The notes beneath the pieces were generated by a model. That model had not been told where the DNA came from, did not search any database, and saw only the letters and a program-made list of their open reading frames with translations. 64,000 nt of DNA, from NCBI GenBank assembly GCA_965223265.1, contig OZ244999.1:544001-608000 (forward strand). The letters run 5' to 3'. Position numbers and translations under genes: made by a program. Source of the DNA: Planctomycetota bacterium (GTDB lineage Bacteria > Planctomycetota > UBA8108 > SXIK01). Shown in pieces: positions 48,117 to 64,000 of the stretch (its first letter is position 1; each line of letters begins with the position of its first letter).

Positions 48117-48125
48117 GGGGGACGG

Positions 48126-49427
48126 ATGGAAGTTGCCGCTGAAAGTAACCTCTCGTGGGCCTTTGTTCTTTTCAGCTGTTTCCTAGCGCTGCTCGTTGGC
48201 GCGGCGTTCGCTGCCGTGGCGCGGCGTCCATCACCGGCGACCTTCTGGCTGGCGAGTGGGTTCGCACTTGTGGCCATTCTTGTCGTGTTTTCCTATCGGT
48301 CCGTCGCGACGGGGTCTTTCGCGGCTCTCCACGCGCTGAGCACGTCTGCCCCCCGATGTGGCCGCCTTGGCGTCGGCATTCTCTTTGCACTCGGTGTGAT
48401 GATCGCGTTCGCGGTGCGTCGCGGTGTTGTCTCCAAGGGGAGCGGTGAGACTGCGCCTTCGACGCCGAGCGCGTCTTCCACGGCTGCCGTCACGCCAAAG
48501 CCGCCGGCGCCGCGGCCACGTCTGCCGCTGGTGGCACTCGCGGCGGCCGCCACGATTGCGCTGCTTCTGATGCTGTCGTACTCGACGGTGCGTCGACAGG
48601 AAATCGTTGAGTGGCAAGAGGCGGCGATGTCGCGCCGCGTCTCTGATCGCGCTGAAGCTGCTGTGCGCGCGAGAACCGGCGTCTCGGAGCGCGCAGGATC
48701 TGCTACGCCCGCGAGAATCCAGGGCGAGAGCGGACCTGGAACAGCAGCGCCTGGAACATTTGCGCGCGACGCCGGCGCGAAGCAGCCCTCCACGGCAAGG
48801 CGGGTTTGGGACGATGATGACGGCTTTGCCTGGGTCAGGCACGGTTCGCACGGGCGCAGCAGCGAGCGGCCTTCGTGGCTGGAGCACGGTTTGACCTGTA
48901 CGCGGGAAGTGCACGCCGAGAATTCCGATCCGTATGTTGTCGCCTATTCGCCGCTTGCCACGACAGAGGGAGAAGCGATCAGCATCGCGCAGAAAGAGGG
49001 ATTGGACCTCATCGCCCGGGAATCCGTGGATGAGTTCTCATCGCGTTTGCCTCAGGTCAGTCGCAAGGCGATTGAAGATGCCGCGATCGAGTTGATCGCT
49101 CTGCGTTATGGTTTGCGCGTTCGGACGTACGTCGAGTCGGCGGTCAAGGACGGAAACAGGGTTTACCGCGCCGCCGTCAAGATCTCTGCGTATGAATCGC
49201 TGAAACCATGGCTTGAGGGCCAACTGACGACACGTTTCTACGGCGGCGGCGAGTCGCTGCTTGCGGGTCTGATCTTTTTCACGCTCGCCTTTGCCATGTT
49301 TCTCGTCGTGGTGATCGTGCGCGCCAATCGCGCCGGTTCGTGGCAGCTACCGCTTCAGGGAGTGGCTGCCGGGCTGCTCATTGCACTCTTCGTCGTCGTC
49401 TCCTACGCTGTGCGGCAGTTCGTGTGA
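48126..49427 (+). CDS. Hypothetical membrane protein
   Basis: About 4 N-terminal TM segments, a soluble domain and 2 C-terminal TM segments; starts 9 nt after the kinase stop. Confidence 0.7.
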   Translation: MEVAAESNLSWAFVLFSCFLALLVGAAFAAVARRPSPATFWLASGFALVAILVVFSYRSVATGSFAALHALSTSAPRCGRLGVGILFALGVMIAFAVRRGVVSKGSGETAPSTPSASSTAAVTPKPPAPRPRLPLVALAAAATIALLLMLSYSTVRRQEIVEWQEAAMSRRVSDRAEAAVRARTGVSERAGSATPARIQGESGPGTAAPGTFARDAGAKQPSTARRVWDDDDGFAWVRHGSHGRSSERPSWLEHGLTCTREVHAENSDPYVVAYSPLATTEGEAISIAQKEGLDLIARESVDEFSSRLPQVSRKAIEDAAIELIALRYGLRVRTYVESAVKDGNRVYRAAVKISAYESLKPWLEGQLTTRFYGGGESLLAGLIFFTLAFAMFLVVVIVRANRAGSWQLPLQGVAAGLLIALFVVVSYAVRQFV

Positions 49428-49481
49428 GGTCTCTCTGGCCGCTGGATTTCTTCGCGCGCATCGTCGCCGGACTGGAAAACC

Positions 49482-50384
49482 ATGGAGCGGGATCAACTGC
49501 AGGGTGAGGGTGATCGCTTCCTGATCGAGGAGGTGCGCGCGGGGTCGGCCGATGGTTTTCGGCGCTTGGTTGATCGTTATGGCGGCCGTCTGAAGGCCTA
49601 CGCCTCGCGGAAGCTTTACGGCACAGGGCTCGATCCCGAAGACGCGGTGCAGGAGACGTTTTTGTCGCTCGTGAGGGCGCTCGATCAGCTCGAGGGTGTG
49701 CGGTCGCTGCAGGCCTACCTGTTCACGATCCTTCGCCGGCGGATTGCCGACATGGCGCGAGCCCGCGGACCGGGCGGCACGCCGGTATCCATCGACGTGA
49801 GCGAAAGTTCGCGAGCGCGCCCGGTACTCGCCGCCGACGAAAGCACACCGAGCACCTACGCGCGCCGTGCTGAGGCGGTCGACGTGCGGCGCCTCGTTCT
49901 AGCCGACGTGCTCGACACTCTTCTCGCTCGCCTCAAGGAAAAGAAGGAGTTTCGCCACCTGAAGATCCTCGAGCTCATCTTCGTACATCGGAAGAGCCAA
50001 CAAGACATCGCGGCGATCGTGAAGACAAGCGAGCCGACCGTCTCACGCACCCGCAAGTCGCTCGTCGAGGAACTCCGCAGGTTGGTCGCCCGCCACGCGC
50101 AGGCCGACGCGCTGCAAGATCTGACGGCGGAGCAGGAAGTCGATGGCCTCATCACGGAGGTATGGCACGAAAACCTGTTCACCTGCGTCAAGCGCAGCAC
50201 GCTCGGCTCCTACGCGCTCGACGTCTTGGAGGCCGATTGGGCCGACTACGTCCGTTTCCATCTCGAGACGCTCGGCTGCGAATTCTGCGCCGCGCACCTC
50301 GCCGACGTCGAACGAGGCGGAGAGCGGATCTCGGCCTCGACGCGCGATCGGATTTTTATGTCGAGTGTTGGTTTTTTGAAGTGA
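49482..50384 (+). CDS. ECF sigma-70 factor with C-terminal Cys/His extension
   Basis: Region 2 LVDRYGGRL..DPEDAVQETF..YLFTILRRRIAD; region 4 SQQDIAAIVKTSEPTVSR; extension TCVKRSTLGSY...HLETLGCEFC. Confidence 0.88.
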   Translation: MERDQLQGEGDRFLIEEVRAGSADGFRRLVDRYGGRLKAYASRKLYGTGLDPEDAVQETFLSLVRALDQLEGVRSLQAYLFTILRRRIADMARARGPGGTPVSIDVSESSRARPVLAADESTPSTYARRAEAVDVRRLVLADVLDTLLARLKEKKEFRHLKILELIFVHRKSQQDIAAIVKTSEPTVSRTRKSLVEELRRLVARHAQADALQDLTAEQEVDGLITEVWHENLFTCVKRSTLGSYALDVLEADWADYVRFHLETLGCEFCAAHLADVERGGERISASTRDRIFMSSVGFLK

Positions 50385-50407
50385 GCGGGGGGTGAAGTCC
50401 TCCTGCG

Positions 50408-50531
50408 CTAGAAACGATCGCCTCTGCTGGCGATCCGACACGAGACGGACGTTTTTCACCAGCGGAAAGCTGTCGCTCGCCTCACCGAGGGGCCGATTTC
50501 TCCGTCGGACTAAAAACGAACCTGGGACGGG
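50408..50531 (+). repeat. Remnant 3' flank of the RAYT-like element, ending in one AAAAACGAACCTGGGACGGG repeat
   Basis: 50408 CTAGAAACGATCGCCTCTGCTGGCGATCCG closely matches 54239 CTAGAAACGATTGCCTCTGACGGCGATCCG. Repeat copy at 50512-50531. Confidence 0.75.
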
Positions 50532-50577
50532 ATTCTCGGATTCTCCGGAAACACGCGCCCCCTCGCGTGCCCGAGAT

Positions 50578-51180
50578 CTACTGCACCCACGACTTGGCGA
50601 AATCGGACGGCCAGTAGCGCTCGGGGAGTGGCATGGCAACGAACGGCGCTGTTGGTCTCACGACCACCGGTAAAAAAGAAGAGCAAAGACGTCGCCCGGG
50701 AAGATGCTTACGGACAAAGTACGTCGTCGAAACCTGACAGCGGTGGGCCGGACTGATCGAATGGGGAACGGGCAGGCCGTAAACGCGCGTCATTTCGTCG
50801 GTCAAGTAATCGGCGATCCCAAAGAGCTCCGGGTCGGTTGGCTCCGTGTTCTTGAGGCCATAGAGTTGGTGCGCCACGTCCTTGAGGTACTGCGGATCGG
50901 CGCGGTCGCCGGCGTCCAAGGAGTAGACCAGCTCGCCAGGGCAATCGTCGTTCCCGTCCTCGAACATCAGAGCGTTCGCTTGGATGACGTGCCCCCACAC
51001 AACGACGCCCTCAGAGAAGAGACTGCGCAGGTTCGCGAAGATAATCGTCAGTTTGTCGGTCGGACACTGGCGAAGCCACGACGGTGTCGGCACACGGAAA
51101 TAGGTCAACCGGTCCCAAAACGACAAGTCGCGAGGCGCGGGACCGAAGTTTGCGATGCATTCACGAATCATCTCTTGCAT
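50578..51180 (-). CDS. Hypothetical protein (orphan cassette gene)
   Basis: 200-aa ORF with AGGAG RBS; GVVVWGHVIQANALMF and RKHLP blocks. Confidence 0.75.
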   Translation of the reverse strand: MQEMIRECIANFGPAPRDLSFWDRLTYFRVPTPSWLRQCPTDKLTIIFANLRSLFSEGVVVWGHVIQANALMFEDGNDDCPGELVYSLDAGDRADPQYLKDVAHQLYGLKNTEPTDPELFGIADYLTDEMTRVYGLPVPHSISPAHRCQVSTTYFVRKHLPGRRLCSSFLPVVVRPTAPFVAMPLPERYWPSDFAKSWVQ

Positions 51181-51245
51181 TAGACGCTCGAAGTCTCCTC
51201 TCGAATGGTTCGAGGTTCGTGTTGCCTACGAATCTACGAATCCGT

Positions 51246-52783
51246 CAGTAGTGTTCGGCACGCTTTGTGCTTCGTCCCCCGGCCGGCTGACACGAACAAG
51301 GCTGCGACTCTTCGCGAGGAATCACAAGGCTGTAAGTCATCGCAGTGATGAGACTTACGAAATCGCTAGAATTTTGAGGAGCTTTGTCGCATCCTATAGC
51401 GCGTTGCGAAACGGCTATGGGAAGCACAGAGATGGCCAGATCCGGTGTTCGTAAGCTCCGGGCAGAGGACATTCAGGGTCGCAAGTATCTGAAGGTCTTC
51501 AACGAGATGCTCGGCAAGTTGAGGCTGCATGCTGATCAGGATGGTGCAGCGGCGAAGAACCGAAAGCTCCATTTTGATCACTACGTCGGTCTCCTGCTTC
51601 TTTACTACTACACGCCCGTGCTGACGAGCTTGCGCTCCATACAGCGCGCCAGCGAGCTGAAGAATGTGCAACGGATGTTGGGCTGCTCACGCGCGGCGCT
51701 GGGCTCGCTGAGCGAAGCTTCTTCCGTCTTCGATCCCGCCGTTCTGCGAGAAGTCATCAGGAATCTGGCCTCGGAAGTAGAAGTTCAGGGTGACGTGTCG
51801 AACAAAGCCCTGGAAGGTCTCACCGCGGTTGACGGGACACTTCTGAAAGCCATCCCTAAGATGACCTGGGCACTGTGGCGTCGTGACGAAAAAAACCGTG
51901 CTGCGAAAGTGCACCTGGTTTTCGACATACTGCGCCAAGCTCCAGCAGACGCTACTCTGACGGATGCGAATGCCTCGGAGAAACAGCAGTTGCGTGGCAT
52001 GTTGGAGAAGGGACGTTTCTACGTTCTCGACGCAGGATATGCGCAGTACAAGCTATTCGCGGACATTATCGATGTAGGTAGCTCGTTCGTCTGTCGTATT
52101 CGTGACGACGCGGCCTGGAAACTGATCGAAACGCGAGAGATAAGCTCGGAAGCAGAGGCTGCGGGAGTTGAGCTGGACGTGGTTGTGCGGATTGGTTGTC
52201 CAAACACTCGAGCTAGAATCAAACGCCCCGTCCGAGTGATCAAGGTTCAGCCACCGTCAATTGACGGAGTGCAGCGTGACCCGATGTTTTTGGCAACCGA
52301 TAGGCTCGATCTTGACGCCGAACTGGTTGCGCTGGCGTATCGTCACCGCTGGTCAGTGGAGCTCTTCTTCAAATGGTTCAAGTGCATTCTGGGCTGTCGT
52401 CAACTCCTGAGTCACAGCGAAAGAGGCCTAACGATTCAGGTTTACATGGGAATCATCGCGAGCCTGCTAATCAGTGTCTGGATCAGGCGAAAGCCGACCA
52501 AAGCCACGCTGGAGATGCTTTGGTTCTACATGTCTGGAATGGCCGATGACGAGGAACTGATCGCGCACGTCGAGCGGTTGCAAAAGCACGCGAAAAGCTG
52601 ACGAAGGGTCCCCCGCAATCCTGTCGGTGACTCGGCGGTTCCCCATCCCTCGAATTGATCGAAACGACTTGATTCGGGCACGCGCATCCCACATCGCTTG
52701 AGCGCAACGGGCAGTCGGACGGAGAATCCTTATGTGTCCAGCCCGTGGCTCCGTAGCAGCAAAATGAGGGCCGAACACTACTG
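51246..52783 (+). mobile_element. IS4-family insertion sequence, 1538 bp
   Basis: 14-bp TIR CAGTAGTGTTCGGC at 51246 and its reverse complement ending at 52783. 9-bp TSD CGAATCCGT at 51237-51245 and 52784-52792. Confidence 0.93.
51417..52601 (+). CDS. IS4-family DDE transposase
   Basis: AVDGT, KVH, VLDAGY, YRHRWSVELFFKWFK (Y-x2-R-x3-E-x6-K signature). Confidence 0.93.
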   Translation: MGSTEMARSGVRKLRAEDIQGRKYLKVFNEMLGKLRLHADQDGAAAKNRKLHFDHYVGLLLLYYYTPVLTSLRSIQRASELKNVQRMLGCSRAALGSLSEASSVFDPAVLREVIRNLASEVEVQGDVSNKALEGLTAVDGTLLKAIPKMTWALWRRDEKNRAAKVHLVFDILRQAPADATLTDANASEKQQLRGMLEKGRFYVLDAGYAQYKLFADIIDVGSSFVCRIRDDAAWKLIETREISSEAEAAGVELDVVVRIGCPNTRARIKRPVRVIKVQPPSIDGVQRDPMFLATDRLDLDAELVALAYRHRWSVELFFKWFKCILGCRQLLSHSERGLTIQVYMGIIASLLISVWIRRKPTKATLEMLWFYMSGMADDEELIAHVERLQKHAKS

Positions 52784-52792
52784 CGAATCCGT

Positions 52793-53001
52793 CCGAGGTT
52801 CATTTTCCCGTCTCGTCGCCGCTTGCTCGGTCACATAGAAAGCAAGATATCGTCACAAATCGACAAAAAAGGCACAGTTATCGCGAAAACGCGGCAGTTC
52901 AACGATACTGTCTGATCCCTGCCTGATCGATCCCTGCCTGATCCTGACCGAGGTTCGTTTGCGCATGCCTGATCTTGATCTGCCTGACCGAGGTTCGTTT
53001 T
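52793..53001 (-). repeat. Minus-oriented repeat copies (AAAACGAACCTCGGTCAGG type), short GATCCCTGCCT duplications, and a duplicated element left-end motif
   Basis: CCGAGGTTCATTTT at 52793, CCTGACCGAGGTTCGTTT at about 52943 and 52983. AGCAAGATATCGTCACAAATCGA at 52841, repeated at 53026. Confidence 0.75.
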
Positions 53002-53228
53002 CTCCCGGTGTGAGGTCAAACAGACAGCAAGATATCGTCACAAATCGAAGAAAAAAGCGCCGATGTCAATTTTGACCGTCCGCATGCGAACAGTTGTAGC
53101 GAGTACGCAACAACTGGGTGATCCATCGAGAGTCGGCACTCTCGACGAGTCCGAGTCCTCACACCGACTTACGTCATATTTGCGTGTCCGTGTGGGAGTG
53201 GAACAGCGTTTGCGTATAGGTTGCGGCG

Positions 53229-54128
53229 ATGACAGCGCCACGACAAATCATCCCCGGCACGACGTAAATGATCACCAGACGCCGCGCGCAGCGTCAGTTC
53301 CTCCTTCGACCTTCGAAGGCGGTGAACCAGGTCGTTCTCTATCTGCTGGCGTACGCTGCAGAACGTTTTTCGATCGACGTTCATGCGTACGTTCTCAGTA
53401 ACCACTATCACCTCGTCGTGACCGATCGGCTTGGCAATCTTCCCGCTTTCATGCAGTTTTTGAACTGCCTAATCGCCCGAGCACTGAACGCCTACTACGG
53501 ACGCTGGGAGAACGTTTGGGCGCCTGGATCTTACAGTGCGGTGACGCTCGTCGGTGAGGAGGACGTCGTGGAGAAGATCGTCTACGTCCTCGCGAACCCA
53601 GTGGCTGCGGGACTAGTTTCGCGCGGCGAGGAGTGGCCGGGGCTGCGTTCGTCGCCGCGGGACTTTGGAACACGCGTTGAAGTCGAACGACCAGCGTTTT
53701 TCTTTCAAAAAGAGGGTGATGCGACGGAGAGCATCGCGCTGAGCATCTCTGCACCGCAGTTTGCTTCTGGACTCTCGGGCGAGGAGCTCGCGCCTCTCGT
53801 CGAAGAAAAACTTCAAACGCGGGAAGCTGAGATCCGCACCGAAACGGCGCGGCGCGGCAAAAAGTTCGCTGGCGTCAAGGCTGTCCGCCGCCAGGACCCG
53901 CTGGGACGCCCTGGCAACGCGGAGCCTCGGCGAAGGCTGAGTCCACGTTTTGCATGCCGCGACAAGCATCGGCGCATCGATACGCTCGTGAAGTACAAGA
54001 CGTTCCTCAGAGAGTATCGCGAGGCCCTGCGGGACTTCTGCGAGGGCCTGCGCGAAGCGCTCTTTCCCCACGGCACCTACTGGATGCGTGTTCACTTCGC
54101 GGCGCGCTGCGCGCCGATGCCGCCGTAG
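53229..54128 (+). pseudogene. RAYT-like / IS200-type HUH (Y1) transposase, copy 1; early nonsense codon
   Basis: SNHYH (HUH) and YVLANPV (catalytic Tyr). Reads MTAPRQIIPGTT then TAA at 53265-53267, where copy 2 has TAC. An ATG follows at 53268, so a shortened protein is possible. Confidence 0.8.
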
Positions 54129-54288
54129 GGCGGTTGGTTCTCGAGGTTGCCAGCGCGTATTCGCTTCATGCCGAGCCCGATCTGCGATCAGCTTGTGTCC
54201 GCCGATTGCCTGAGCTGCATGAGAATCTCCGTCTCCGCCTAGAAACGATTGCCTCTGACGGCGATCCGTCGCGAGGCAGGCGTTCTCG

Positions 54289-54774
54289 TCATTCAGGAGT
54301 GTGTGGTAATTCATCGAGCACCTCGCAAATATCTGAACTAATAGTCGAGATCTTTACGTACTCATCAGCCCGCGTGATTTGAACTCCACCCAGTTCGACA
54401 ATAAACCGTGGCCACGATGGCAGTATTCGTGGAGGAACATCTCGAAAGAGAATGAGCATGTCGTCTTCCGTTCGTGGAACGAGTGGTGACACATCCCCCA
54501 TACCGACATAGACGAAAGGTCGGGGACTTTGTGAGCCGTCAATACGTCGGGTCTCAAGAGATTGGACGTAAGGATCTGTAGTACGTGTCTCGTCTTCGAC
54601 GTAAGCCACGACGTACGGTCGATCTCGCCGTATCCGCCATAGGTTTGAAAGGATAACTGCGTCGATGAGCTGTTCATTTCTTACCGAGTCCGGGAGCAGC
54701 GGAAGCAGAAGGTAATGAATAACGGAATCGTCCTGCCAAGGCGGACAGGCATGTTTTAACAGTGATAGTGACAT
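54289..54774 (-). CDS. Putative immunity protein for the upstream Rhs tip
   Basis: 161-aa ORF 58 nt downstream of the Rhs stop; visibly more AT-rich than core genes. Function inferred from position. Confidence 0.65.
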   Translation of the reverse strand: MSLSLLKHACPPWQDDSVIHYLLLPLLPDSVRNEQLIDAVILSNLWRIRRDRPYVVAYVEDETRTTDPYVQSLETRRIDGSQSPRPFVYVGMGDVSPLVPRTEDDMLILFRDVPPRILPSWPRFIVELGGVQITRADEYVKISTISSDICEVLDELPHTPE

Positions 54775-54832
54775 ATCTCAACCGTTATCGCAGACGGGTC
54801 TCTCGCGTTTCACTTCGCATTGAATTGCGTTC

Positions 54833-56412
54833 TTAAGAACCCGGAATCTTGTCTCCGGGAGAAAATCTTGCGTGACTGAACTGCGTGCCTGGGATGTCTA
54901 CATGGAAGTGAGGCCCCCTGTGAAACTCCGGCGCATTCGCATGATAGGGGTGTTGCTCAAATGTTATTCTCATCCGTCCTTGCGGAGTGGAAACATCCCA
55001 GTCAACTCTTCCGCGGCCTGGCAACGGTTGTCCGGTTTGAGGGTTCATGTCCGGCCGTCGTGTCCCCGGGAATCCCAAAAGCTCGTCGAACTCGTCAGCG
55101 CTGTTTGGAAATCGGAAATCACTCGCCCTCCTAGGGACAGTGTGAAGCACGCCATCCTGAAAATGTAACGCAGCTGGCCGTGATCGAGACAGACAATTTA
55201 GCTTGGCAGCTGCAAGCCTTGCGCCCGCCTTCATGGAGCCACCGGCCCCGGCCAAGTCGTAGGCGAGCTCGGCATAGTACTGACCGGTTTGATCCGCCCC
55301 CATGTCGAGTGCTACCTGCTTAGCCACCTGCCCTCCGATCGTTGGCCCCCCAAGAATTCCAGCTTGGAAAGAATCAGCGCCGTGCCCAATCAAGAACGTG
55401 CCCAAGGCCAGCACACCTAGCCCCGGAGCTGTCCCGACGCCTGTCGTACTCGCTGCCGCTCCGATTCCAAGCAGCGCGCCGCCTAAAGCGACCTCTGCCG
55501 CGCCGCCGACGGCTTGCAAGGCGCGCCCCGCAGCGTTCCACACGTCAAACAACCCCATCGGATCCAGCCCATTGACCGGATTCCCCCCAACATAAGCATA
55601 GGCATTCCCAGCATTGCCGGGATCGCCCCACACGCCTATGGGATCGCGGCTGACGAAGCGGCCGAGTGTGGGGTGGTACTGGCGTAGTCGGAAGTGGTAG
55701 AGCTGGGTCTCGAGGTCGAGGCGGCGGTCGGCGAAGAGGATGTCGTTTTCGTGGCTTGACGCCCCTGAGGGGTTCTGAAACGACGCGTCGAGGAAGGTCA
55801 CTTTGCCGTAGGCGTCGTAGTCGTAGCGCTCGAGCACGGCTCCGCTAGCGTCGAGGAGCGCGGTGACGTTCATGTTGGCGTCTTGCGTGTAGTACTCTGG
55901 GTCGTCGAGCTCGTCGATGTCGCCGTCGGCGTCGGTGTCGCGCACGCGCAGAGCGATCGCGTCGATGTAGACTGGGTGGTAGAGGTACTCTTCCTTCAGC
56001 GTTGTCGACAGCACCGGGTCGGTCGTCGGGTTCGAGCCGCGATCGACGGTGTCTTTGCGCACCTGCACGACTTGCCAGCCGGCGCCGTAGTAGTACTCCC
56101 ACACATCCCAGTTCGTCGTCGCGGACTGTTTGGCGAACTTGCGAGTGCGCCTGCCGAGTCCATCGTAGCGGTACTCCGCGATGACCTCGCCGGCCTGCTT
56201 GACTGCCACCATGCGGTCGAAGGCGTCGAAGACGTACTCGTGCTCGGCGAGAGCCTCACTGCCCGGGATCGGCGCCTTGGTCGCGCTACCGTTGGCATCG
56301 AACTCCGGGTCCTTCCAATTCGAGATCGCCGTCGCACTCGGCGGATCGGAGTGGTCGTTGTCGTCGTCAACCTCGTTGGCGTCGTTGTGCTGGCGCGTCT
56401 GCGTCGTCCAGC
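54833..56412 (-). pseudogene. Rhs toxin, 3' part (Rhs core end plus His-rich C-terminal toxin tip); interrupted by the 56413-60477 element
   Basis: YRYDGLGRR, ERYDYDAYG, RQYHPTLGRFVSRDPIG, NAYAYVGGNPVNGLDPMG (DPxG), Gly/Ala-rich pre-toxin region, tip EQHPYH..HRGPHFH. Confidence 0.9.
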
Positions 56413-56653
56413 TGCTGAGTCCCACAAACTCTGGCTCGTGAGCAGCGACGAGTCTCAGATTCACTGACCCGGAAACGCCCCGGCATACCCCGCCGAACCG
56501 ACCGTCCGATCATACCCCGCCTACCCCGCGCCCCCCGTTCGACGCTGCGCCCTGGACCTTCGCTCGACTCCTCGCCTCACCTCGAGTAAAGAGGGGAGCG
56601 GAGAGACCGGTGTTGGTGCACTTCTCTCCGCAAGTCCCCGTACGGAGAGAGCG

Positions 56654-57322
56654 ATGCTACCCCATTTGGTCAACGCGATACAGAGCTATGGCGAAGCTGT
56701 TCGCCGCCGTGAGATCCAGCCGACCTGTAACCGCTGCCCGAATTGCAGCGGGGAGCCAGATCGGTTCCGCTACCGCGGTCACCGAGAGCGCGTGTTCCTC
56801 GTTATCGTCAGGCGTCTGGTCGAACCTGTCCTGTCGCTTCTGAGTCGCTGGAAGTGTCCTCTGTGTAAGCGCTCCTTCACGCTCTACCCGCCCTTCGCGC
56901 TGCCGGGGAAACGCTACGTTCGCGACTGCGTTTTCGATCACGCTCGGCGCTACCTCCAGATCGACGAGCTTTCGTATCGCGAAGCCGTCAAGGTCGAACA
57001 CATGCCCGTCTTCCACGAGGGTGACGACAGGGGAGCGATCGACGAGCGCAGCCTCGCGCACTCAACACTTCATCGTTGGCTTTCGTTCTTTCGCTCTCTC
57101 AACGCCACGCTCCTGGAGGCTCTCCGCCTCATCCGAGAGCGCTCGGCGAGGTCCGACATCTTCCGCAAGGTCTTCGCCGTCCGTCCAGCCAAGTACCGAA
57201 GCGAATCACGGCGGGACACTCTCGTCGCGGCACTTCGAGCTCTCTCGATCGACCAGGTGTTCCGTTCCCTCTTCGGCCGATCGATCTTCCCCGACTTGGC
57301 AACCTCCGCAGCCTGGGCGTGA
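56654..57322 (+). CDS. Element-encoded Zn-finger protein (DUF6431-like, tentative)
   Basis: CPNC...R.R..RWKCPLC..FTLYPPFALPGKRY, then HTH-like STLHRW. Confidence 0.7.
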   Translation: MLPHLVNAIQSYGEAVRRREIQPTCNRCPNCSGEPDRFRYRGHRERVFLVIVRRLVEPVLSLLSRWKCPLCKRSFTLYPPFALPGKRYVRDCVFDHARRYLQIDELSYREAVKVEHMPVFHEGDDRGAIDERSLAHSTLHRWLSFFRSLNATLLEALRLIRERSARSDIFRKVFAVRPAKYRSESRRDTLVAALRALSIDQVFRSLFGRSIFPDLATSAAWA

Positions 57323-57362
57323 GCGAGAATCACGCCTCGCTCGCCCCATGCGAGGTGTGATC

Positions 57363-58925
57363 ATGAAAGCGAAAGATCTCGATTGGGCTATCTTCTGGGC
57401 GGCTCTTCTCCAGCCCGTCGTCATCGGCGAGGTGCCGGAGGAGGAAGCCGCGCGATTTCTCCGCGAGCTCGCCAAAGAAGAGCGCATCTTTCCCGACGGA
57501 TCGCGACGCAAGCCGGCTCTTTCGACCCTGAGGCGGAAGCTTCGCATCTATCGCGAGGAGGGCTTCGAGGGTCTTGCCCGCAGGCCGCGAAGCGATCGCG
57601 GGAAACCGCGTGCCCACGGCAAAGAGCTCGTCGAGAAAGCCGTCGAGCTGAAGCGTGATCAGCCACTGCGCTCCCACTTCGCCATCAACAAGTTCCTCCA
57701 GGCTCAGCACGGAAAGACCATTCCGCGTTCGACCCTCTTCCGCTACCTCAAGATCGCCGGCGCGACGCGGCTGAAGCTCGGTGTCGAGAGGAGGAAAGTC
57801 CGGAAACGCTGGACTCGTGACTCCACCCATGCCCTCTGGGTCGGCGACTTCGCCGATGGACCCTACGTGCTGCACGACGGCGAAGTCGTCCCCACCTTCC
57901 TCTGTGTTCTCATCGACTGCTACAGCCGCTCGCTCGTCGAGGGGCGCTACTACCTTCGGCAAAATCTCGAGGTCTTGATCGACTGCTTGCTGCGGGCGTG
58001 GGCCAAGCACGGTGCTTCGGACGAGCTCTATGTCGATCAGGCGAAGGTCTATATCTCCAAAGCGCTCAAGGCGGCATGCCTTGCCGTTGTCACCCGGCTC
58101 ATCCATCGCGGCAAGGGCGATCCGCCACCGGGTGGTCTCGTCGAACGACTCATCGAGACGATACAGGGCCAGTTCGAGGCCGAGGTCAGAGCCGGCGAGA
58201 TCCTCACTCTCGACTCGCTCAACGGAAGCTTCGATTCCTGGAAGACCGTGGCCTACCACCGCCAGGTCAACACCGAGACCGGCGAAACACCCGAGGCACG
58301 AGCCGAGGCCGGCCTCAAACGGCCTATCCGACACGTCGACATTCAGCGCGTCACCGAGTTCTTCATGTGCCGCGAGACGCGGCGCGTTCACCCGGACTTC
58401 TCCGACGTCCAGCTCGATCGCCGCTTCTATCGCGTCGACAAGAGTCTGCGCGGTGACAAGGTCGAAGTCCGCTACGATCCCTTCTCCGCGCCCGACACGG
58501 TTCTCATCTACTCCAGCAACGAAGAGTACCTCGGAAAGGGCGTCCTTCACGAGCGCGAAGAGGGCGAGGACGCCGGTGCTCCCGCCCCTCCCGCCAAAGC
58601 GAAGCACAACTATCTGGAGCTTCTTCGCCGTGAGCACGACGAGGAGCTCAAGAAGCGCGCCCAGGGGATCGACTACCGTCGTGTCATCGCCTCTCGCCAG
58701 TGGCCCTTCACCGACTTCGCATGCCTTCTCGGCCGGCTCATGGGGCGCAAGGGCGCCCTCTCGAGCTTCACCGCCGAGGAGCTCGAGGAACTCAAGAAGT
58801 TCTACAACCGTACTCCCAGCCTCACCGAAGTCCTCTTGCTGAGGGCCTTCGAGAAGGCTCCGGAGAAATCCATTCCCTACATCGCCTACGAGCTTCAACG
58901 ACTCGCAGGCAGAAAGGAGGACTGA
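57363..58925 (+). CDS. DDE transposase/integrase (rve core, IS481/Mu-like, Mu-C-terminal-like region)
   Basis: HTH (STLRRKLR..RRPRSDRG), LWVGD, LYVDQ, GLVER, VEVRYDP; GAGGTG RBS. Confidence 0.9.
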   Translation: MKAKDLDWAIFWAALLQPVVIGEVPEEEAARFLRELAKEERIFPDGSRRKPALSTLRRKLRIYREEGFEGLARRPRSDRGKPRAHGKELVEKAVELKRDQPLRSHFAINKFLQAQHGKTIPRSTLFRYLKIAGATRLKLGVERRKVRKRWTRDSTHALWVGDFADGPYVLHDGEVVPTFLCVLIDCYSRSLVEGRYYLRQNLEVLIDCLLRAWAKHGASDELYVDQAKVYISKALKAACLAVVTRLIHRGKGDPPPGGLVERLIETIQGQFEAEVRAGEILTLDSLNGSFDSWKTVAYHRQVNTETGETPEARAEAGLKRPIRHVDIQRVTEFFMCRETRRVHPDFSDVQLDRRFYRVDKSLRGDKVEVRYDPFSAPDTVLIYSSNEEYLGKGVLHEREEGEDAGAPAPPAKAKHNYLELLRREHDEELKKRAQGIDYRRVIASRQWPFTDFACLLGRLMGRKGALSSFTAEELEELKKFYNRTPSLTEVLLLRAFEKAPEKSIPYIAYELQRLAGRKED

Positions 58926-59716
58926 TGTTCACCACCCATTTCAAGATGACGACGCAGCCCTTTCTCGAGCGCGCGCCCGTCGAGCAGATTCTTTCCGACG
59001 AGCGCATCACCCAGGGACTCGCTCGACTGGAGTACCTCGCCAAGTCGGGCTCGATCGGCCTGGTGACCGGACTCACCGGGGTGGGGAAGTCGTCTCTGGT
59101 GAAGCTCTTCGTGCGCTCGCTGAGCCGCAACCTCTACGACCCGATCTATCTCTCGCTGACCTACGTCGGGGCAAACGGCATTCTGAAGCTCCTGGTTTCC
59201 AGCCTCGGCGAGCAGCCCCGCCGTGGCAAGGAGCGGCTCTTCCTCCAGATCCTGGATCGCGTCGGGGCGAACGAGCACACGACAATCCTCGTCATCGATG
59301 AAGCGCACCTGCTTCCTTCGGAGTCGCTCACCGATCTGAGACTTCTGGTCAGCTCCGGACTCGAGGACGGCCCGCCATTGAAGATCCTCCTCAGCGGACA
59401 AGAGACCCTGAGAAAGGAGCTTACCCGAGCGCGCCACGCCGATCTCACGCATCGGCTCAGCGTGCGCTACCACGTGCCGCCGCTCAGCAAGGAGCAGACG
59501 GTCGAGTACATCGACTTTCAGATGCGCGCAGCCGGCGCCTCGCAGAAAGTCTTCGAGCCTGAAGCGAAGTCGCTCATCCACGACTACTCAAGCGGCGTGC
59601 CGCGGCGCATCAACAACATCGCCACCGCCTGCCTCATTCAGGCCGCGAGCAAGAACGTCCAGAAGATCTCCGAGGCGCTCGTCAACGACACCGCCCCCGA
59701 GTTCCATCTGCCCTGA
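58925..59716 (+). CDS. ExeA-like AAA+ ATPase (transposition helper)
   Basis: Walker A GLTGVGKS, Walker B LVIDEAH, LSGQ, SGVPRRIN; TGATG coupling with the transposase. Confidence 0.9.
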   Translation: MFTTHFKMTTQPFLERAPVEQILSDERITQGLARLEYLAKSGSIGLVTGLTGVGKSSLVKLFVRSLSRNLYDPIYLSLTYVGANGILKLLVSSLGEQPRRGKERLFLQILDRVGANEHTTILVIDEAHLLPSESLTDLRLLVSSGLEDGPPLKILLSGQETLRKELTRARHADLTHRLSVRYHVPPLSKEQTVEYIDFQMRAAGASQKVFEPEAKSLIHDYSSGVPRRINNIATACLIQAASKNVQKISEALVNDTAPEFHLP

Positions 59717-59735
59717 GAACGGAGACTGACGCGCC

Positions 59736-60029
59736 ATGTTCCACAAGACCCTGATGCCTCGAGTCAACGACTTCGCCGAGTATCCTGAGCTCGCCGTTTT
59801 GATGACCCTCGCGACGAACCTCGAGATCGCCCTGTTCGCTCTGAACGCCGCGTACCCCGATCTCGACTTCGACTACACGCAACGCTCCTCCTACACCGAG
59901 CAAGACGCCTATCTCGCCGCCTTGGGCGCTCAGCTGCGAGCGCTCCAGATCGTCCTCGAAGAGTATCTCGAGAGCCTGCAACGAATCCGATATTTGAAGG
60001 CGCCGAGCGGTGGAGGTGGCGTCGCATGA
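59736..60029 (+). CDS. Element-encoded small helical hypothetical protein
   Basis: 97-aa ORF, GGAG RBS, ATGA overlap with the next gene. Confidence 0.65.
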   Translation: MFHKTLMPRVNDFAEYPELAVLMTLATNLEIALFALNAAYPDLDFDYTQRSSYTEQDAYLAALGAQLRALQIVLEEYLESLQRIRYLKAPSGGGGVA

Positions 60030-60343
60030 CAGGACGATTCTCCGGCAAGCTCCTGCGGTCGTTGAGAAACGATATACCGATCGCGTGGCTCCTCGATCTG
60101 CTCGGCGTCCCCGCGAAAATCTCCGAGGGCTACGTGCGCTTCCTCTGTCCGCGGTGTCGCGAATTCAACACCGCGACGAAGGCGTCCACCAACCTCGCGC
60201 GTTGCTTTCGCTGCGAGACGAACTTCAACCCGATCGACCTGGTCATGATCGTCAAGCGGCTGAATTTCGTCGACGCCGTCGAGTTCCTCGCCGAGCTCCG
60301 CGATCGTCGCGGTGACGCTCGCGCCACGCCTCGCCCTTCGTGA
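60026..60343 (+). CDS. CHC2/primase-type zinc-finger protein
   Basis: FLCPRC...ARCFRC..NFNPIDLVM...LNFVDAVEFL resembles the DnaG zinc-binding domain. Confidence 0.75.
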   Translation: MTGRFSGKLLRSLRNDIPIAWLLDLLGVPAKISEGYVRFLCPRCREFNTATKASTNLARCFRCETNFNPIDLVMIVKRLNFVDAVEFLAELRDRRGDARATPRPS

Positions 60344-60348
60344 TTCCC

Positions 60349-60382
60349 CGGGTCGTCGTGCCGTCCGGGACACGACGACCCG
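60349..60382 (+). terminator. GC-rich hairpin after the last gene of the element
   Basis: CGGGTCGTCGTG-10 nt-CACGACGACCCG perfect 12-bp stem; no clear U-tract. Confidence 0.4.
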
Positions 60383-60477
60383 CGCCTTCTCGCCTCGCAA
60401 ATCGCATCTCGCACCCGCGAATCAGCACCATGCCATTTAATCTGGGATTTCCGCGCCAGATACTGTGGGACTTAGCA

Positions 60478-60676
60478 TCCAGCTTTGGCCGTTGTTGGTC
60501 GAGGTCTTGAACTCGGTCCAGTTGCCGAGCTCATCGAACGTCCACTCGGCCTTGTAGGTGGCGTTGGTGATCGACGGCCCGCCGCCGGTCAACTTGCCGC
60601 GGTCGAATTCGGTGAGGCGATAAAGACCGTCGTAGGCATACTCCTGGTCGCGGTCGAGGTTCGCCGTGCCGGGATC
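60478..60676 (-). pseudogene. Rhs toxin, 5' fragment (continues in frame into 56412 once the element and one TSD copy are removed)
   Basis: Minus frame DPGTANLDRDQEYAYDGLYRLTEFDRGKL...EWTFDELGNWTEFKTSTNNGQSW joins TTQTRQHNDANEV. The 5' end abuts the repeat array at 60677. Confidence 0.85.
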
Positions 60677-60785
60677 AAAAACGACCCTGGGACGGGGTTT
60701 TCGTCCGCGAAAATGACCCTGGGACGGGGTTTCCGGGTTACCGGGACGGGTTTTCCGAGGTTTTAAAAACGACCCTGGGACGGGA
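60677..60785 (+). repeat. Array of AAAA(C/T)GACCCTGGGACGGG repeats (3 full, 1 partial)
   Basis: Copies at 60677, 60710 and 60765, partial CGGGACGGGTTTTCC near 60742. Confidence 0.9.
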
Positions 60786-60854
60786 TTTCCTCGTCGTGCT
60801 GCGATCGAAAGACTTCAACTTGAACACGCGCGCTATCAAAGATGGGACGGGACT

Positions 60855-61331
60855 TCACGTTCCCTCCCGAAACGAAAGCGTACTGATCAACGAGTCCAAG
60901 TAGTTTCCCTCCCAGCTTCCCGACGCTTTCAGGCGACGAAGTTCGGAAACGACAGCGGGGCGTGGCTTCCAGTCCCGGAGGCACGAAACGTGTAGGTGAG
61001 TGAACGAATATGGGTACAGCGGGTCCGAGAGTTCTGACGTGAGGTGGTGGATCAGGAGGTAGTCATCAGGGTGAAGTACCTCTCTATCGCAGACCACGCA
61101 AATTCGATTGCCGGGACCAGTTTGTTTCGACCAACTTGCGAAGCGCTCTTTCACGACGTTCCGTAGAGGATGTTGTTCGAAGCAAACCTTGTGAAACGCG
61201 GTGTCACTGAAGAAGAACAATTCGTCTTTCTCGTTCACGACGAACGCGGGAAAAGCAATCGTTTTCCCCAGTTCCGAAATCGGTTTGCTACAAATCCGAC
61301 AGGTTGTTTGCCCCTCGATTATCAACGCCAT
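60855..61331 (-). CDS. Putative immunity protein with duplicated Cys/His zinc-binding motifs
   Basis: CRIC...FHKVC and CVVC...HLHVSC; AGGTG RBS; starts 7 nt after the toxin-fragment stop. Confidence 0.7.
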   Translation of the reverse strand: MALIIEGQTTCRICSKPISELGKTIAFPAFVVNEKDELFFFSDTAFHKVCFEQHPLRNVVKERFASWSKQTGPGNRICVVCDREVLHPDDYLLIHHLTSELSDPLYPYSFTHLHVSCLRDWKPRPAVVSELRRLKASGSWEGNYLDSLISTLSFREGT

Positions 61332-61338
61332 CGTTCAC

Positions 61339-61509
61339 CTACCTCCTACGGCGCACGACCGTAACTTGACCTCCGTGGAACACGTACTGTTTGCTCTGAC
61401 TCAGGCCTAGAAAGCGCCTCGACATCGGCTGCGCTGGGTAGAGAACTGTCCGGGTGAGTGTGTCCAAAGATACGCGTAATCTCGCCTCCCTTGAAGTGGG
61501 CAATCCATC
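61339..61509 (-). pseudogene. Truncated, apparently frameshifted toxin tip with a JAB/MPN-like motif
   Basis: RIFGHTHPDSSLPSAAD (HxHx7Sx2D-like) in one frame and LGLSQSKQYVFHGGQVTVVRRRR* in another. The 5' end abuts a minus-oriented repeat at about 61510. Confidence 0.55.
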
Positions 61510-61766
61510 CCGAGCCCGGGTTCGTTTCTCGTCCTGTCTCGTCCGTCGCAGAGTCACCTAGACAGCAAAATATAGGCACAAATCGGAGAAAAAATCGCCG
61601 ATGTCAATTTTGAACGTCCGTATGCGAACAGTTGTAGCGAGTACGCAACAACTGCGTGATCCACCGGGAGTCGGCAGTTTCGACGAGTCTGAGTTCCTGC
61701 GCAGACTTACGTCATATTTGTGTGACCTCGCGGCCGTGGAACAGCGTTTGCCTGTAGGTCGCGGCG

Positions 61767-62667
61767 ATGACGGCGCCGCGACAAATCATCCCTGGGACGA
61801 CGTACTTGATCACCAGACGCTGTGCGCAGCGTCAGTTCCTGCTGCGACCTTCGAAAGCAGTGAATGAGGTCGTTCTCTATCTTGGCGTGCGCCGCGGAGC
61901 GCTTTTCGATCGACGTCCACGCTTACTGTGCAATGAGCAATCACTACCACTTAGTCGTCACGGACAGGTTCGGGGTCCTGCCGGCGTTCATGCAGCTTCT
62001 GAACTGCCTGATCGCCCGTGCCCTCAATGCCCACTATGGTCGCTGGGAAAACGTGTGGGCGCCTGGTTCTTACAACGCCGTGACGCTGGTCGACGAGGAC
62101 GACGCGGTCGAGAAGATCGTCTACGTTCTCGCCAACCCGGTGGCAGCGGGTTTGGTCTCGCGCGGTGAAGAGTGGCCCGGACTGCGCTCGTCGCCGCGGG
62201 ACTTCGGCACGTGTCTTGAGGTCGAACGGCCAGCGTTTTTCTTTCAAGAAGATGGCTAGACGCCCGAGAGCGTCGCCTTGAGCATCTCGGCGCCGCAGTT
62301 CGCCTCTGGGCTCCCCGGGGAGGAGCTTGCACCTCTCGTCGAGGAGAAACTTCAAGCGCGGGAGGCCGACATACGCGCCGACATGGCTCGGCGCGGCAAG
62401 AGGTTCGCGGGCGTCAAGGCCGTCCGTCGCCAGAGCCCGTTGGCGCGTCCTGGCGATCCGGAACCGCGGCGAATGCTCATCCCTCGCTTCGCCTGCCGCG
62501 ACAAGCAGAGGCGCATCGACGCGCTCATGAAATACAAAGAGTTCCTCAGAGAATACCGTGAGGCCCTACGGGACTTCTGCGAAGGCATCCGTGAAGCGCT
62601 GTTTCCCTACGGCACGTACTGGATGCGTGTTCACTTCGCGGCGCGCTGCGCGCCGAGGCCGCCGTAG
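61767..62667 (+). pseudogene. RAYT-like / IS200-type HUH (Y1) transposase, copy 2; frameshift and internal stop
   Basis: Homologous to copy 1 along its length (SNHYH, YVLANPV, FP.GTYWMRVHF). Frameshift near 61880 and in-frame TAG at 62257-62259. Confidence 0.88.
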
Positions 62668-62899
62668 GGCGAACGGCCGCACGCGGTCACGTTGATTCGA
62701 GCATGGCGTTTCAGCTCCGCGTCAGGAGCCGTGGTCAACCTACGTCCCTTAGTTGCCACAACTGCATGAGAATTCCCCTCGCAGTATCAAAACGAGAGCG
62801 CTCGACAGCGGTGCAGCCCCGAAACACGCCGCTTCGACGTCCGAGGGCCTAAACACGCCGTGAAAATCGGTCGTTTTCGAAACGACGAACTCGCGCTCC

Positions 62900-63057
62900 A
62901 AAAACGAACCTGGGACCCCTTCCTCCGAAAACGAACCTGGGACGGGTTTTCCACCAAAAACGAACCTGGGATAGGTTATCCCAAAAACGAACCTGGGACG
63001 GGTTATCTGGTTATCTGCAAAAACGAACCTGGGACGGGTTATCTGACGGGTTATCTG
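62900..63057 (+). repeat. Array of five AAAACGAACCTGGGA(CGGG) repeats with GGTTATCT duplications
   Basis: Copies at about 62900, 62928, 62956, 62983 and 63019. Confidence 0.92.
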
Positions 63058-63072
63058 TTACGCGGTGTGTCG

Positions 63073-63438
63073 TCAAAGTTCTACGTTGGCCAGGTCAAGG
63101 GTCTCCTTCCGTAGCTCCCACCTGTTGGACTCCATCCACTGCTCTAACTCTTCGGGAATTCGAACATTGTATTTTGAAACGTAGTAAAGCAGGTCTCTTG
63201 GCCACGCCCACTCTCCATCTGTCAAGATGTCTGGGGGACCGATCACAGGCTTGTCAGGGTCGAGAACGTCGTGAACGATGCCAGGGCACGCTATGAGCAC
63301 TTCTCCTTGGCTCAGGTAGGAGGCGATCTCAGTGGCATGGCTCAGAGGTTCGTCAGACACCAGAGACCGCAGGCTCTCCCCTCCGGGATCACCGTGTCCC
63401 AATTCACGGAAGAATCCAAATCGGCGTAACTTTTTCAT
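63073..63438 (-). CDS. Putative immunity protein
   Basis: ATGA overlap with the toxin stop; GFFREL..YL..G...D......TDGEWAWP.DL.YYV..YN..P pattern. Confidence 0.75.
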   Translation of the reverse strand: MKKLRRFGFFRELGHGDPGGESLRSLVSDEPLSHATEIASYLSQGEVLIACPGIVHDVLDPDKPVIGPPDILTDGEWAWPRDLLYYVSKYNVRIPEELEQWMESNRWELRKETLDLANVEL

Positions 63439-64000
63439 TTTCCTGGCGTAAATGTATTCCACACGCCCGTGTTGGACGTTGGAGAGTTTCCTATTGTCAG
63501 GTTCCCGTTCCGATGAATCCACAGGGTGTCGCTGGGTGCAGTGACTTCGGCTCCTATCTTATTCGACAGATTCTGGGCAACACCAGTAGGACAGCTCCCC
63601 GTTCCGCATGATAGTAGACGAACTGGTCCTCCAGAGTACCCTTGCTTTTTCATGAACGTCGCAAGTGAACGATGGTTCATTTTCACCCACTTCCCGTTGT
63701 GCAAAACGTGAAACGCATCGGAGCTGCCGTGGACCACGACATCGAAGACGCCTTTCTGAGGCTTCACCCAGCTTGCGGCCTCGGCTAGGTCGTCGCCGAG
63801 CCTGGCGGACGCCGCTACACAACTCTTCTTCCTCCGGTGCTTCTTTAGGGCGTCCCGGTACTCTCGATACTTCCTGAGGTTCTCTCTCGCGTGAGCAAGA
63901 TCCTCTGCGGTCTCAGCAGCCTTTGCGGCAGCTCTCCAGCGCTTTACTTGTCGATGAGCGAACTTGAGCGCGGGACCACTGCCCGCGCTGACGGCATGAA
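63435..64000 (-). CDS. C-terminal part of a polymorphic toxin with clan-CD (caspase/C80-like) peptidase-like tip; gene starts beyond the window
   Basis: Frame is open from the window end to TGA at 63435; FDVVVHG...VRLLSCGTG His/Cys dyad pattern, followed directly by a small coupled gene. Confidence 0.7.
   Translation of the reverse strand, partial: HAVSAGSGPALKFAHRQVKRWRAAAKAAETAEDLAHARENLRKYREYRDALKKHRRKKSCVAASARLGDDLAEAASWVKPQKGVFDVVVHGSSDAFHVLHNGKWVKMNHRSLATFMKKQGYSGGPVRLLSCGTGSCPTGVAQNLSNKIGAEVTAPSDTLWIHRNGNLTIGNSPTSNTGVWNTFTPGK

Follow-up and report, generated by a model that had tools for sequence, protein, structure and literature searches.

In Salmonella and Escherichia coli, Rhs arrays have been described in which a full-length Rhs gene is followed by 5'-truncated core fragments that carry different tips and their own immunity genes (PMC3967940, PMC3032704). 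Recombination between main and orphan copies in Salmonella is described in part of the former report, with 522 bp at 95% identity being sufficient (PMC3967940). We analyzed a locus of the same layout in a Planctomycetota bacterium (GenBank assembly GCA_965223265.1, contig OZ244999.1), whose single-contig genome comprises 9.18 Mb with a G+C content of 61%. Pfam families specific to planctomycetes (PSCyt1/2, PSD1, and DUF1501) were found at other loci of the genome, in agreement with Planctomycetota. The downstream part of this locus lies inside the window, a stretch of 64,000 nucleotides corresponding to genome positions 544001 to 608000, and the main Rhs gene is located just past the window end; window-equivalent coordinates continue past 64000. 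Minus-strand toxin/immunity cassettes alternate in the locus with plus-strand copies or remnants of an element that encodes a Y1-type HUH transposase (referred to here as Y1). This anatomy, which had been proposed in an original prediction made from the sequence alone, is real. The locus is of a known kind, with a new element association. We modestly favor the interpretation that it is a classical Rhs polymorphic-toxin locus that grew by ordinary recombination, with the Y1 copies being decayed passengers rather than an active cassette recombinase.

Matches to the Rhs core model TIGR03696 were found at three co-oriented sites (genome positions 599550, 608176, and 610756), the last of which lies in the 2403-amino acid main gene, as in described orphan arrays. 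In addition to this gene, the locus contains two orphan toxin/immunity cassettes that include core sequence, and another two that are leftovers. The two orphans retain 1.06 to 1.16 kb of core that is 93 to 97% identical to the main gene, and the stretches shared among the three core copies in blastn comparisons measured 864 to 1161 bp at 93 to 97% identity, with the core of orphan 1 (55550–56413) being 94 to 97% identical to the other two copies. Longer than the 522 bp at 95% identity reported for Salmonella, this retained core is sufficient for classical recombination between main and orphan genes. Differences from the Salmonella and E. coli arrays are the planctomycete host, the lack of type VI secretion system genes seen nearby, the presence of a Y1 copy or remnant at every junction, and the ending of core fragments at element termini.

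The positions of these endings were examined at each junction. As had been predicted, the fragment of orphan 1 begins at the 60677 array: the last position homologous to the main gene is 60672, after which come GATC and then the first forward repeat. For orphan 2, core homology is lost at approximately 65336–65338, and 28 nucleotides of ATAACC-type half-units then precede an inverted repeat. Both orphan Rhs fragments thus stop 4 to 28 nucleotides from an element end. The downstream genes also stop near arrays, at distances of 47 nucleotides (50531 to 50578), 65 nucleotides (60790 to 60855), and 33 nucleotides (63040 to 63073), and the stop codon of the orphan 1 immunity open reading frame (ORF) is situated 5 nucleotides from the 3' flank of the first Y1 copy (54284 to 54289), both in accordance with the prediction. 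It had been further proposed that breakpoints follow the repeats rather than Rhs homology. The first half of this proposal holds, in that cassette boundaries coincide with Y1 element ends, whereas a substantial Rhs core is retained. Junctions at element ends do not imply that Rhs homology is irrelevant.

The predicted two plus-strand Y1 genes of the window (Y1-A at 53268–54128 and Y1-B at about 61601–62667) and a lone 3' flank at approximately 50388–50531 were also identified. Both genes are broken: codon 13 of Y1-A is TAA, with an ATG behind it, and Y1-B has a frameshift and a TAG, its homology being split into two pieces with one TAG each; the two copies are 82% identical (53022–54132 versus 61560–62671, blastn). 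Elsewhere in the genome there are three uninterrupted full-length frames (1626104–1627090, 2501359–2502345, and 5522754–5523716), and overall we found five full-length copies with 64 to 84% identity, together with at least five remnants. Y1 orientations were mixed in both chromosome arms, with no replichore strand bias of the type expected for lagging-strand transposition of single-stranded DNA (replication origin near 7.9 Mb, terminus near 3.5 Mb).

The gene product consists of about 300 amino acids, with a C-terminal domain of approximately 150 residues, and family members share a conserved C-terminal half that ends in FPxGTYWMRV. In an alignment of 16 sequences, H90 and H92 were invariant within an NH(Y/H/G)H motif (mostly NHYH), as were Y150 and N154; the residue following N154 was P in 14 of the 16 rows and A in two copies from one relative (G025). 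The HuH motif and a catalytic tyrosine in Y-x3-NP are the features of repetitive extragenic palindrome (REP)–associated tyrosine transposases (RAYTs, or TnpA-REP). The corresponding NCBIfam model (NF047646) matched family members with E values of 1e-11 to 1e-17 and scores of 43 to 65 bits, below its cut-off of 80; Y1-A matched REP_Tyr_transpos of NCBIfam with an E value of 3.7e-11, also below the cut-off, with one TAA inside the match, and Pfam Y1_Tnp yielded E values of 0.01 to 0.06 (14 to 16 bits versus a cut-off of 23). The closest solved relative by profile was E. coli TnpA-REP (PDB code 4ER8, E value of 0.0023). The best Foldseek match of an AlphaFold model (pLDDT of 74) was the same structure (E value of 5.7e-5, target TM score of 0.66 over 142 columns), with the C-terminal half unmatched; structures of the IS608, IS200, and ISDra2 transposases ranked next. 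The enzyme is therefore RAYT-like, as originally proposed, on the basis of its motifs, its below-cut-off match to the NCBIfam model, and the proximity of 4ER8 in both sequence and fold. Assignment to IS200/IS605 (TnpA-IS200) was rejected: the copies are diverged, the 3' hairpin is weak, and the tyrosine lies in an NP-type motif instead of Y-x2-NQ. A 5' hairpin of Y1-A (53091–53116) has 10 bp and a folding energy of –10 kcal/mol (z of –3.4). Covariation in this hairpin across seven copies did not rise above that of shuffles (67 and 82 of 500), and RNAalifold gave no consensus for an alignment in which two rows were badly aligned. Genome positions 4206866–4207099 gave a sixth match to the REP-associated tyrosine transposase model (E value of 1.5e-12), more distant than the others; it was missed by the Y1 protein query and so probably represents a second RAYT-like family.

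Two groups of described enzymes resemble this family. In a REPtron, a RAYT/TnpA-REP gene is flanked by inverted repeats of the REP type or of bacterial interspersed mosaic elements (PMC5581495, PMC6006769). The present element is similar in that its HUH-Y1 enzyme is nearest to TnpA-REP and its gene lies between inverted arrays of a short repeat. It differs in that the repeat is undispersed and hardly palindromic, and in that the gene is multicopy with paralogs of 46 to 83% identity, has the additional C-terminal domain, and does not reach the cut-offs of NCBIfam and Pfam. Class 2 TnpA-Y1 subclasses 2.1 and 2.3 (Quentin et al. 2018) are characterized, in the sections of that paper that concern them, as not associated with REPs, proteobacterial, and of unknown mobility (PMC6006769). 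By description, our family shares with them NHYH, Y...NP, a length of about 325 amino acids with a large C-terminal domain, and the occurrence of several diverged copies per genome, but its members come from Planctomycetota, Myxococcota, and Acidobacteriota, and its copies in the present genome have flanking repeat arrays (PMC6006769). In a species-representative genome collection, 234 of 276 candidates were confirmed as relatives. Most belong to Myxococcota (Anaeromyxobacter and relatives); Planctomycetota came next, and a single one was from Acidobacteriota. The single copy per genome that is typical of RAYTs was not the pattern found, with 18 Y1 matches in relative G001 (among which identity was 46 to 83%) and 34 in G025.

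The Y1 element has the repeat AAAACGAMCCTGGGAC as its terminal motif, which occurs in inverted orientation at the 5' side and in forward orientation at the 3' side. The prediction of a short repeat family marking the locus was borne out by 14 window matches to AAAACGAMCCT with at most one mismatch, 13 of which lie between 50513 and 63030, compared with a mean of 1.54 and a maximum of 5 in 100 shuffles of the window. The motif of the flanking arrays is (AAAAC)GAACCTGGGAC, with GAACCT(G/C)GGAC as the conserved core. Y1-derived DNA was present at the loci of 26 of 27 strict matches genome-wide; the remaining match (1638819) is apparently in coding sequence. A profile search with nhmmer gave 42 matches at E values of ≤0.1, all of which were within 2.4 kb of Y1-derived DNA as defined by blastn (12 at the Rhs locus, 3 near 1626 kb, 5 near 2482–2486 kb, and 22 in one array at 2502.5–2503.6 kb), although the profile was built from exact-core units and so favors such units. 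The repeat is therefore not a genome-wide REP. Inverted units upstream and forward units downstream, the arrangement of a REPtron, were present at Y1-B and at the 2501-kb copy (with one weak downstream unit at the latter), whereas only upstream units were seen at Y1-A and only downstream units at the 1626-kb copy. The units behave as arrays of terminal inverted repeats. Repeat units of the window fold weakly as single-stranded DNA (–1 to –4.4 kcal/mol, z of about 0 versus shuffled sequences), and a variant at 2503 kb folds slightly better (–5.4 kcal/mol, z of –1.6); the palindromic, dispersed, high-copy character of REPs was not observed. Upstream of an intact Y1 copy, genome positions 2502500–2503600 (18500–19600 of locus L003) contain approximately 22 to 25 repeat units with GA-rich spacers and a higher-order duplication of about 365 bp. 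Most copies in G001 (7 of 11 non-Rhs loci) have GAACCC(C)G on the 3' side of the element, as a rule a single time; the copies linked to Rhs have arrays.

Linkage to Rhs was determined as the number of Y1-derived loci within 6 kb downstream of any of 12 TIGR03696 core ends, in comparison with random placement. The anticipated enrichment was apparent, with 2 of 10 loci of this genome being linked versus 0.075 expected (P = 0.002); at the second of these loci, a transposase fragment and an AhpC-like gene lie between Rhs and Y1. The same count for unrelated transposases, however, gave 2 of 21 DDE_Tnp_1 and 3 of 14 rve matches (5 of 35 together) versus 0.26 expected, with a 4-kb insertion sequence (IS) inside orphan 1 coming on top of these numbers. 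In this genome, mobile elements in general accumulate downstream of Rhs genes, and two unrelated IS are present in the locus under study. DDE or rve matches were also located 1.5 to 5.3 kb downstream of three other Rhs core ends, at genome positions 2454779–2468200 and 3295820–3299191. H-rpt of E. coli Rhs elements encodes a DDE-type protein. It is IS-like and occurs habitually among the C-terminal tips downstream of Rhs, with the part of PMC3032704 that treats it recording no observed transposition. Both elements are thus recurrent downstream of Rhs, but the present one is instead of the HUH-Y1 type, with terminal repeat arrays.

We compared 41 genomes, all of other genera, among which G001 belongs to the same family but a different genus; where assemblies are fragmented, adjacency was counted as a minimum, and related genomes are not independent. 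All three above-cut-off Rhs core ends of G001 have a Y1 copy or fragment 1.3 to 3 kb downstream. Given that G001 is nearly devoid of DDE elements (0 and 3 matches), Y1 is simply the dominant mobile element there. One of nine core ends in G025 was linked to Y1, in two tandem copies, as was 1 of 15 in G041, where a 129-amino acid C-terminal Y1 fragment lies 133 nucleotides past the immunity ORF. No Y1 was found downstream of Rhs on the same contig in G042 (0/7), G005 (0/3), G014 (0/12), G012 (0/3), G016 (0/2), or G037 (0/4), several of these assemblies being fragmented. The other 11 Y1 loci examined in G001 were situated among ordinary genes (those for P-type ATPase, cytochromes, sigma factors, and peptidases). 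In the wide collection, an Rhs-like tblastn match was present at 4 of 79 loci, three of them from G001 or G025. Among 41 loci with full flanks, mostly from Myxococcota, Pfam analysis of 79 neighboring ORFs revealed housekeeping neighbors in 40 and an Rhs neighbor in only one (L025); a neighboring ORF at locus L050 has a DUF6883 domain. Rhs-adjacent Y1 copies were mostly fragments, often 5'-truncated with the 3' end kept, as expected because the region is recombination-prone.

The simplest account of how the array arose is that the ancestral unit was an Rhs gene, an immunity gene, and a convergent Y1 element, as in G001 (three loci), G025, and G041. The array would then most likely have grown by recombination of units consisting of a truncated toxin, an immunity gene, and a Y1 element, in a region that tolerates and gathers mobile DNA, with the Y1 copies probably serving as convenient break or homology points. 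Because each such unit would have ended with an element, element ends would mark the unit boundaries. The truncations beside element 5' ends probably came about when an element inserted into a core or a deletion reached as far as a core, after which the cores recombined with each other. The anatomy, the family of the element, its distribution over the genome, and the control counts were observed directly, and this order of events is what we infer from them for growth of the array.

Several of our findings weigh against such growth by ordinary recombination. The proximity of the orphan 5' truncations to element ends is one of them. The Y1 copies of the window are only 75 to 82% identical to one another, which makes them poor substrates for homologous recombination, and the pattern, in which each junction has one of five element copies or remnants and the orientation never changes, is more regular than independent random insertions would give. 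The 3' end of Y1 adjoins Rhs immunity genes in convergent orientation in all seven planctomycete Rhs loci, which represent four genera, and a deltaproteobacterial metagenome-assembled genome is likewise convergent, with Rhs and DUF2019 followed by Y1 (L025); the convergent baseline at non-Rhs loci of G001 was about 4 in 10, as estimated by crude ORF picking. Finally, a 409-bp module of G001, comprising the C-terminal coding end of Y1 and the 3' flank (11453–11861 of locus L009 and 10400–10808 of locus L008), is 99.3% identical between two Rhs loci whose Rhs proteins share only about 30% identity where they align. The identity begins exactly at the terminal GGAACCCGG motif, and versions with 80 to 90% identity occur at a third locus. 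This module hints at recent end-specific activity.

One explanation for the constant arrangement is that the elements inserted independently, with a target preference for sites beside immunity genes or orphan junctions, and had no part in building of the array. The distance of 5 to 283 nucleotides between the element 3' end and immunity stop codons, which was maintained in four genera, is consistent with this idea, as are the intergenic position of G001 copies and the presence of the 3' terminus GAACCC(C)G in three flanks, with AT-rich sequence ahead of it in two. Five same-orientation insertions in one locus would nevertheless require strong targeting, and no common target sequence was apparent at the junctions, nor was a strong shared 10-mer detected in the G001 flanks; the lack of a replichore strand bias also does not favor this explanation, which we consider unlikely. 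Another explanation is that the Y1 3'-end module provides only a portable region of downstream homology, so that cassettes are exchanged when a RecA-type double crossover takes place in the Rhs core on one side and in the Y1 module on the other. Every unit has a conserved core on one side and the shared Y1 module on the other, and in G001 the nearly identical module stands behind different tips at two Rhs loci, with more diverged versions at the third. In the present genome, however, the flanks are only 75 to 86% identical over 110 to 190 bp, which is poor for homologous recombination, and a double crossover swaps cassettes but does not alone generate orphans that abut an element 5' end. We regard such an exchange as improbable.

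We also examined whether the cassettes occur elsewhere with or without Y1. No second copy of any window cassette protein was found in the genome. The immunity protein of orphan 2 has four homologs besides itself (103 to 126 bits over about 120 amino acids), and homologs were present in 63 metagenomic loci, in 29 of which they directly follow a homolog of the orphan 2 tip (conserved domain, residues 127–245). This recurrence establishes the orphan 2 tip and immunity protein as a genuine toxin/immunity pair; Rhs-like sequence was detected at seven loci, and the pair of toxin domain and immunity protein belongs to no Pfam or NCBIfam family. A Y1 homolog was found at none of the 63 loci, for which at least 1 kb of downstream flank was available in 35 and at least 2 kb in 20. 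The assembled contigs of four runs from one study contained no rearranged forms of the locus, although contigs cannot show rare forms. One well-supported contig joint (56406 to 60478) matches the IS-free paralogous core copies, and another (55833 to 63258) had only 22 nucleotides on one side. A motif resembling an element 5' end (CGGTGTG..TCAAA) after the 63040 array was rejected, given that the pattern had been defined from its own two genome matches and was therefore circular; the immunity protein there ends at its natural C-terminus.

The integron-like shuffling of cassettes by HUH enzymes that was central to the original prediction is thus weakly supported: the local Y1 genes are broken, so that no intact recombinase accompanies the array, the cassettes are unique in the genome rather than recurring in other orders or places, and the contigs contain no alternative junctions beyond paralog artifacts. 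Such a mechanism could still operate if intact Y1 enzymes encoded elsewhere acted in trans on the terminal repeats, capturing, moving, or truncating cassettes as single-stranded DNA. The three uninterrupted frames would provide the enzyme, element ends within 65 nucleotides bracket every cassette, and the closeness of the breakpoints to element ends, the convergence in seven of seven planctomycete Rhs loci, and the G001 3'-end module bounded by the terminal motif are all compatible with this possibility. Against it stand the lack of any duplicated or relocated cassette in the genome and the absence of Y1 from all 63 orphan 2 immunity loci, 35 of them with a downstream flank of ≥1 kb. DDE elements are also equally enriched near Rhs, most family members lie beside housekeeping genes, the repeat units, unlike REP hairpins, fold no better than shuffled sequences, and class 2 TnpA-Y1 enzymes are presented without known mobility in the relevant part of their description (PMC6006769). 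Trans action in this manner therefore seems to us quite unlikely. A more specific form, in which the planctomycete RAYT-like Y1 family with its long C-terminal region docks 3'-end-first on the stop codons of Rhs immunity genes, cleaves and joins single-stranded DNA at its terminal GAACCYSGG repeats, and so builds, truncates, and moves units as an HUH equivalent of cassette capture by integrons, with intact copies acting in trans on the decayed ones of the array, would be a still more doubtful proposition. A tyrosine recombinase is linked to co-oriented immunity genes in the recombinase-associated immunity array rAID-1, which contains one conserved XerD-type enzyme at the 5' end and, as far as its preprint description extends, immunity genes only (bioRxiv 10.1101/471110). 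Our locus resembles integrons and rAID-1 with regard to the co-orientation of toxin-defense genes, the repetitive intergenic sequences, and the linked recombinase gene (bioRxiv 10.1101/471110), but it differs from rAID-1 in that a broken HUH gene is repeated between the cassettes and faces them, and in that toxin fragments are present. The picture that the original prediction had set against its own proposal, that of selfish elements simply accumulating in a neutral region, largely describes what we observed, except that the constant position and orientation of Y1 beside immunity genes are not attributable to chance alone.

The features of the locus are listed in Table 1. The predicted module of an Rhs tip plus immunity gene at 54289–60676 is present but is interrupted by a 4065-bp element of the rve/Mu type at 56413–60477. 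This element also contains two small ORFs, one with a weak match to a CHC2 zinc finger, and occurs in 10 genome copies with identities of ≥99.97%; it resembles a Mu/Tn552-like transposon with recent activity. The transposase of the IS4-family element matched Pfam DDE_Tnp_1 (E value of 2.6e-22) and, above the cut-off, NCBIfam transpos_IS4_1 (E value of 4.6e-51). The labels "JAB-like" and "peptidase-like" previously attached to two tips found no support in Pfam, NCBIfam, or PDB, the JAB-like remnant being without a match even at E values of ≤10. Searches of Pfam, NCBIfam, PDB sequences, and Atlas yielded nothing usable for the tips and immunity proteins. The 200-amino acid orphan ORF had no match in Pfam or NCBIfam and nothing usable in Atlas, the presumed immunity protein of orphan 1 no family match in Pfam or NCBIfam, and the Cys-rich ORF no significant family match. 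An ORF at 61339–61557, which has an Arg-rich translation of doubtful coding quality, may not be coding. The lone right-end flank (50411–50529) is 81% identical to a remnant at genome positions 2429838–2429956 (blastn), and the left-end start remnant upstream of Y1-A is similar to 53021–53080. The region is closed by an extracytoplasmic function (ECF)–type sigma factor gene, and the lone Y1 3' flank begins 4 nucleotides past the end of this gene. Directly upstream of the locus, 44745–50384 encodes a 1123-amino acid Ser/Thr kinase, a 433-amino acid protein without a family, and the ECF-type sigma factor.

Table 1 Features of the Rhs locus and its Y1 elements. Coordinates are those of the window or, where indicated (w.e.), window-equivalent. 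LE and RE, left (5') and right (3') ends of the Y1 element; GC3, G+C fraction at third codon positions; aa, amino acids.
Feature	Coordinates	Strand	Remarks
Lone Y1 3' (RE) flank with one forward terminal repeat (50513–50536)	50388–50536	+	Between ECF sigma gene end (50384) and orphan ORF
Orphan ORF, 200 aa	50578–51180	-	GC3 0.74 fits coding; unique in genome; possibly leftover immunity-type gene
Degenerate inverted terminal repeat GAGGTTCGTGTT of lone LE remnant, split by IS4 insertion	51210–51223	-	
IS4-family insertion sequence	51246–52783	+	405-aa DDE transposase 51384–52601; 14-bp terminal inverted repeats; 9-bp target duplication CGAATCCGT
Inverted terminal repeats (52796, 52951, 52991) and lone LE-start remnant (~52807–52880), upstream of Y1-A	52793–53001	-	
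Y1-A element body	53002–54284	+	LE region; hairpin; RE flank 54129–54284; no forward array behind
Y1-A gene		+	ATG 53229, TAA 53265, second ATG 53268, end 54128
Presumed immunity gene of orphan 1, 161 aa	54289–54774	-	Directly after toxin tip; unique in genome
Rhs orphan 1, 3' part: core end (..DPMGL) and toxin tip of ~238 aa	54833–56412	-	TIGR03696 Rhs_assc_core, E 3.9e-18
4065-bp IS/transposon within orphan 1 core	56413–60477	+	634-aa rve + Mu-transposase-C protein; 338-aa AAA ATPase
Rhs orphan 1, 5'-most core piece	60478–60676	-	60478–60672 96% identical to w.e. 67613–67807 (blastn)
Forward terminal-repeat array, 3–4 units, without Y1 body alongside	60677–60790	+	
Cys-rich ORF, 158 aa, presumed orphan immunity gene	60855–61331	-	GC3 0.63; unique in genome
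Short remnant upstream of Cys-rich ORF	61339–61509	-	Runs into Y1-B inverted repeat
Y1-B pseudogene element	61507–62844	+	Degenerate inverted repeat 61507–61540; LE; broken gene 61767–62667; RE flank
Forward terminal-repeat array, 5 units	62901–63041	+	
Immunity gene of orphan 2, 121 aa	63073–63438	-	ATG overlaps toxin stop as ATGA (63435–63438)
Toxin tip of Rhs orphan 2	63435–64000	-	ORF runs on past window to ~65147; core homology 64176–65336
Y1 mini-element without gene	w.e. 65358–65706		One inverted repeat, ~80 bp of 5'-end sequence, 5 forward repeats
Small ORF downstream of main Rhs gene	w.e. 65754–66080	-	
Main Rhs gene, 2403 aa	w.e. 66084–73295	-	TIGR03696

Our literature searches yielded no published link of RAYTs to polymorphic toxins and no published association of Y1 with Rhs, although the supplements of PMC6006769 and PMC5581495 may already classify this family. 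Our results document a REPtron-like family in Planctomycetota and Myxococcota whose repeats stay beside the gene, and they show that several kinds of mobile element gather downstream of Rhs genes. They also provide a control for claims that a given element is linked to toxin loci, in the form of the same count for unrelated transposases. If the mechanistic link between Y1 and the cassettes were true, it would represent the first HUH single-strand enzyme that organizes toxin/immunity cassettes and would give class 2 TnpA-Y1 proteins a concrete function.

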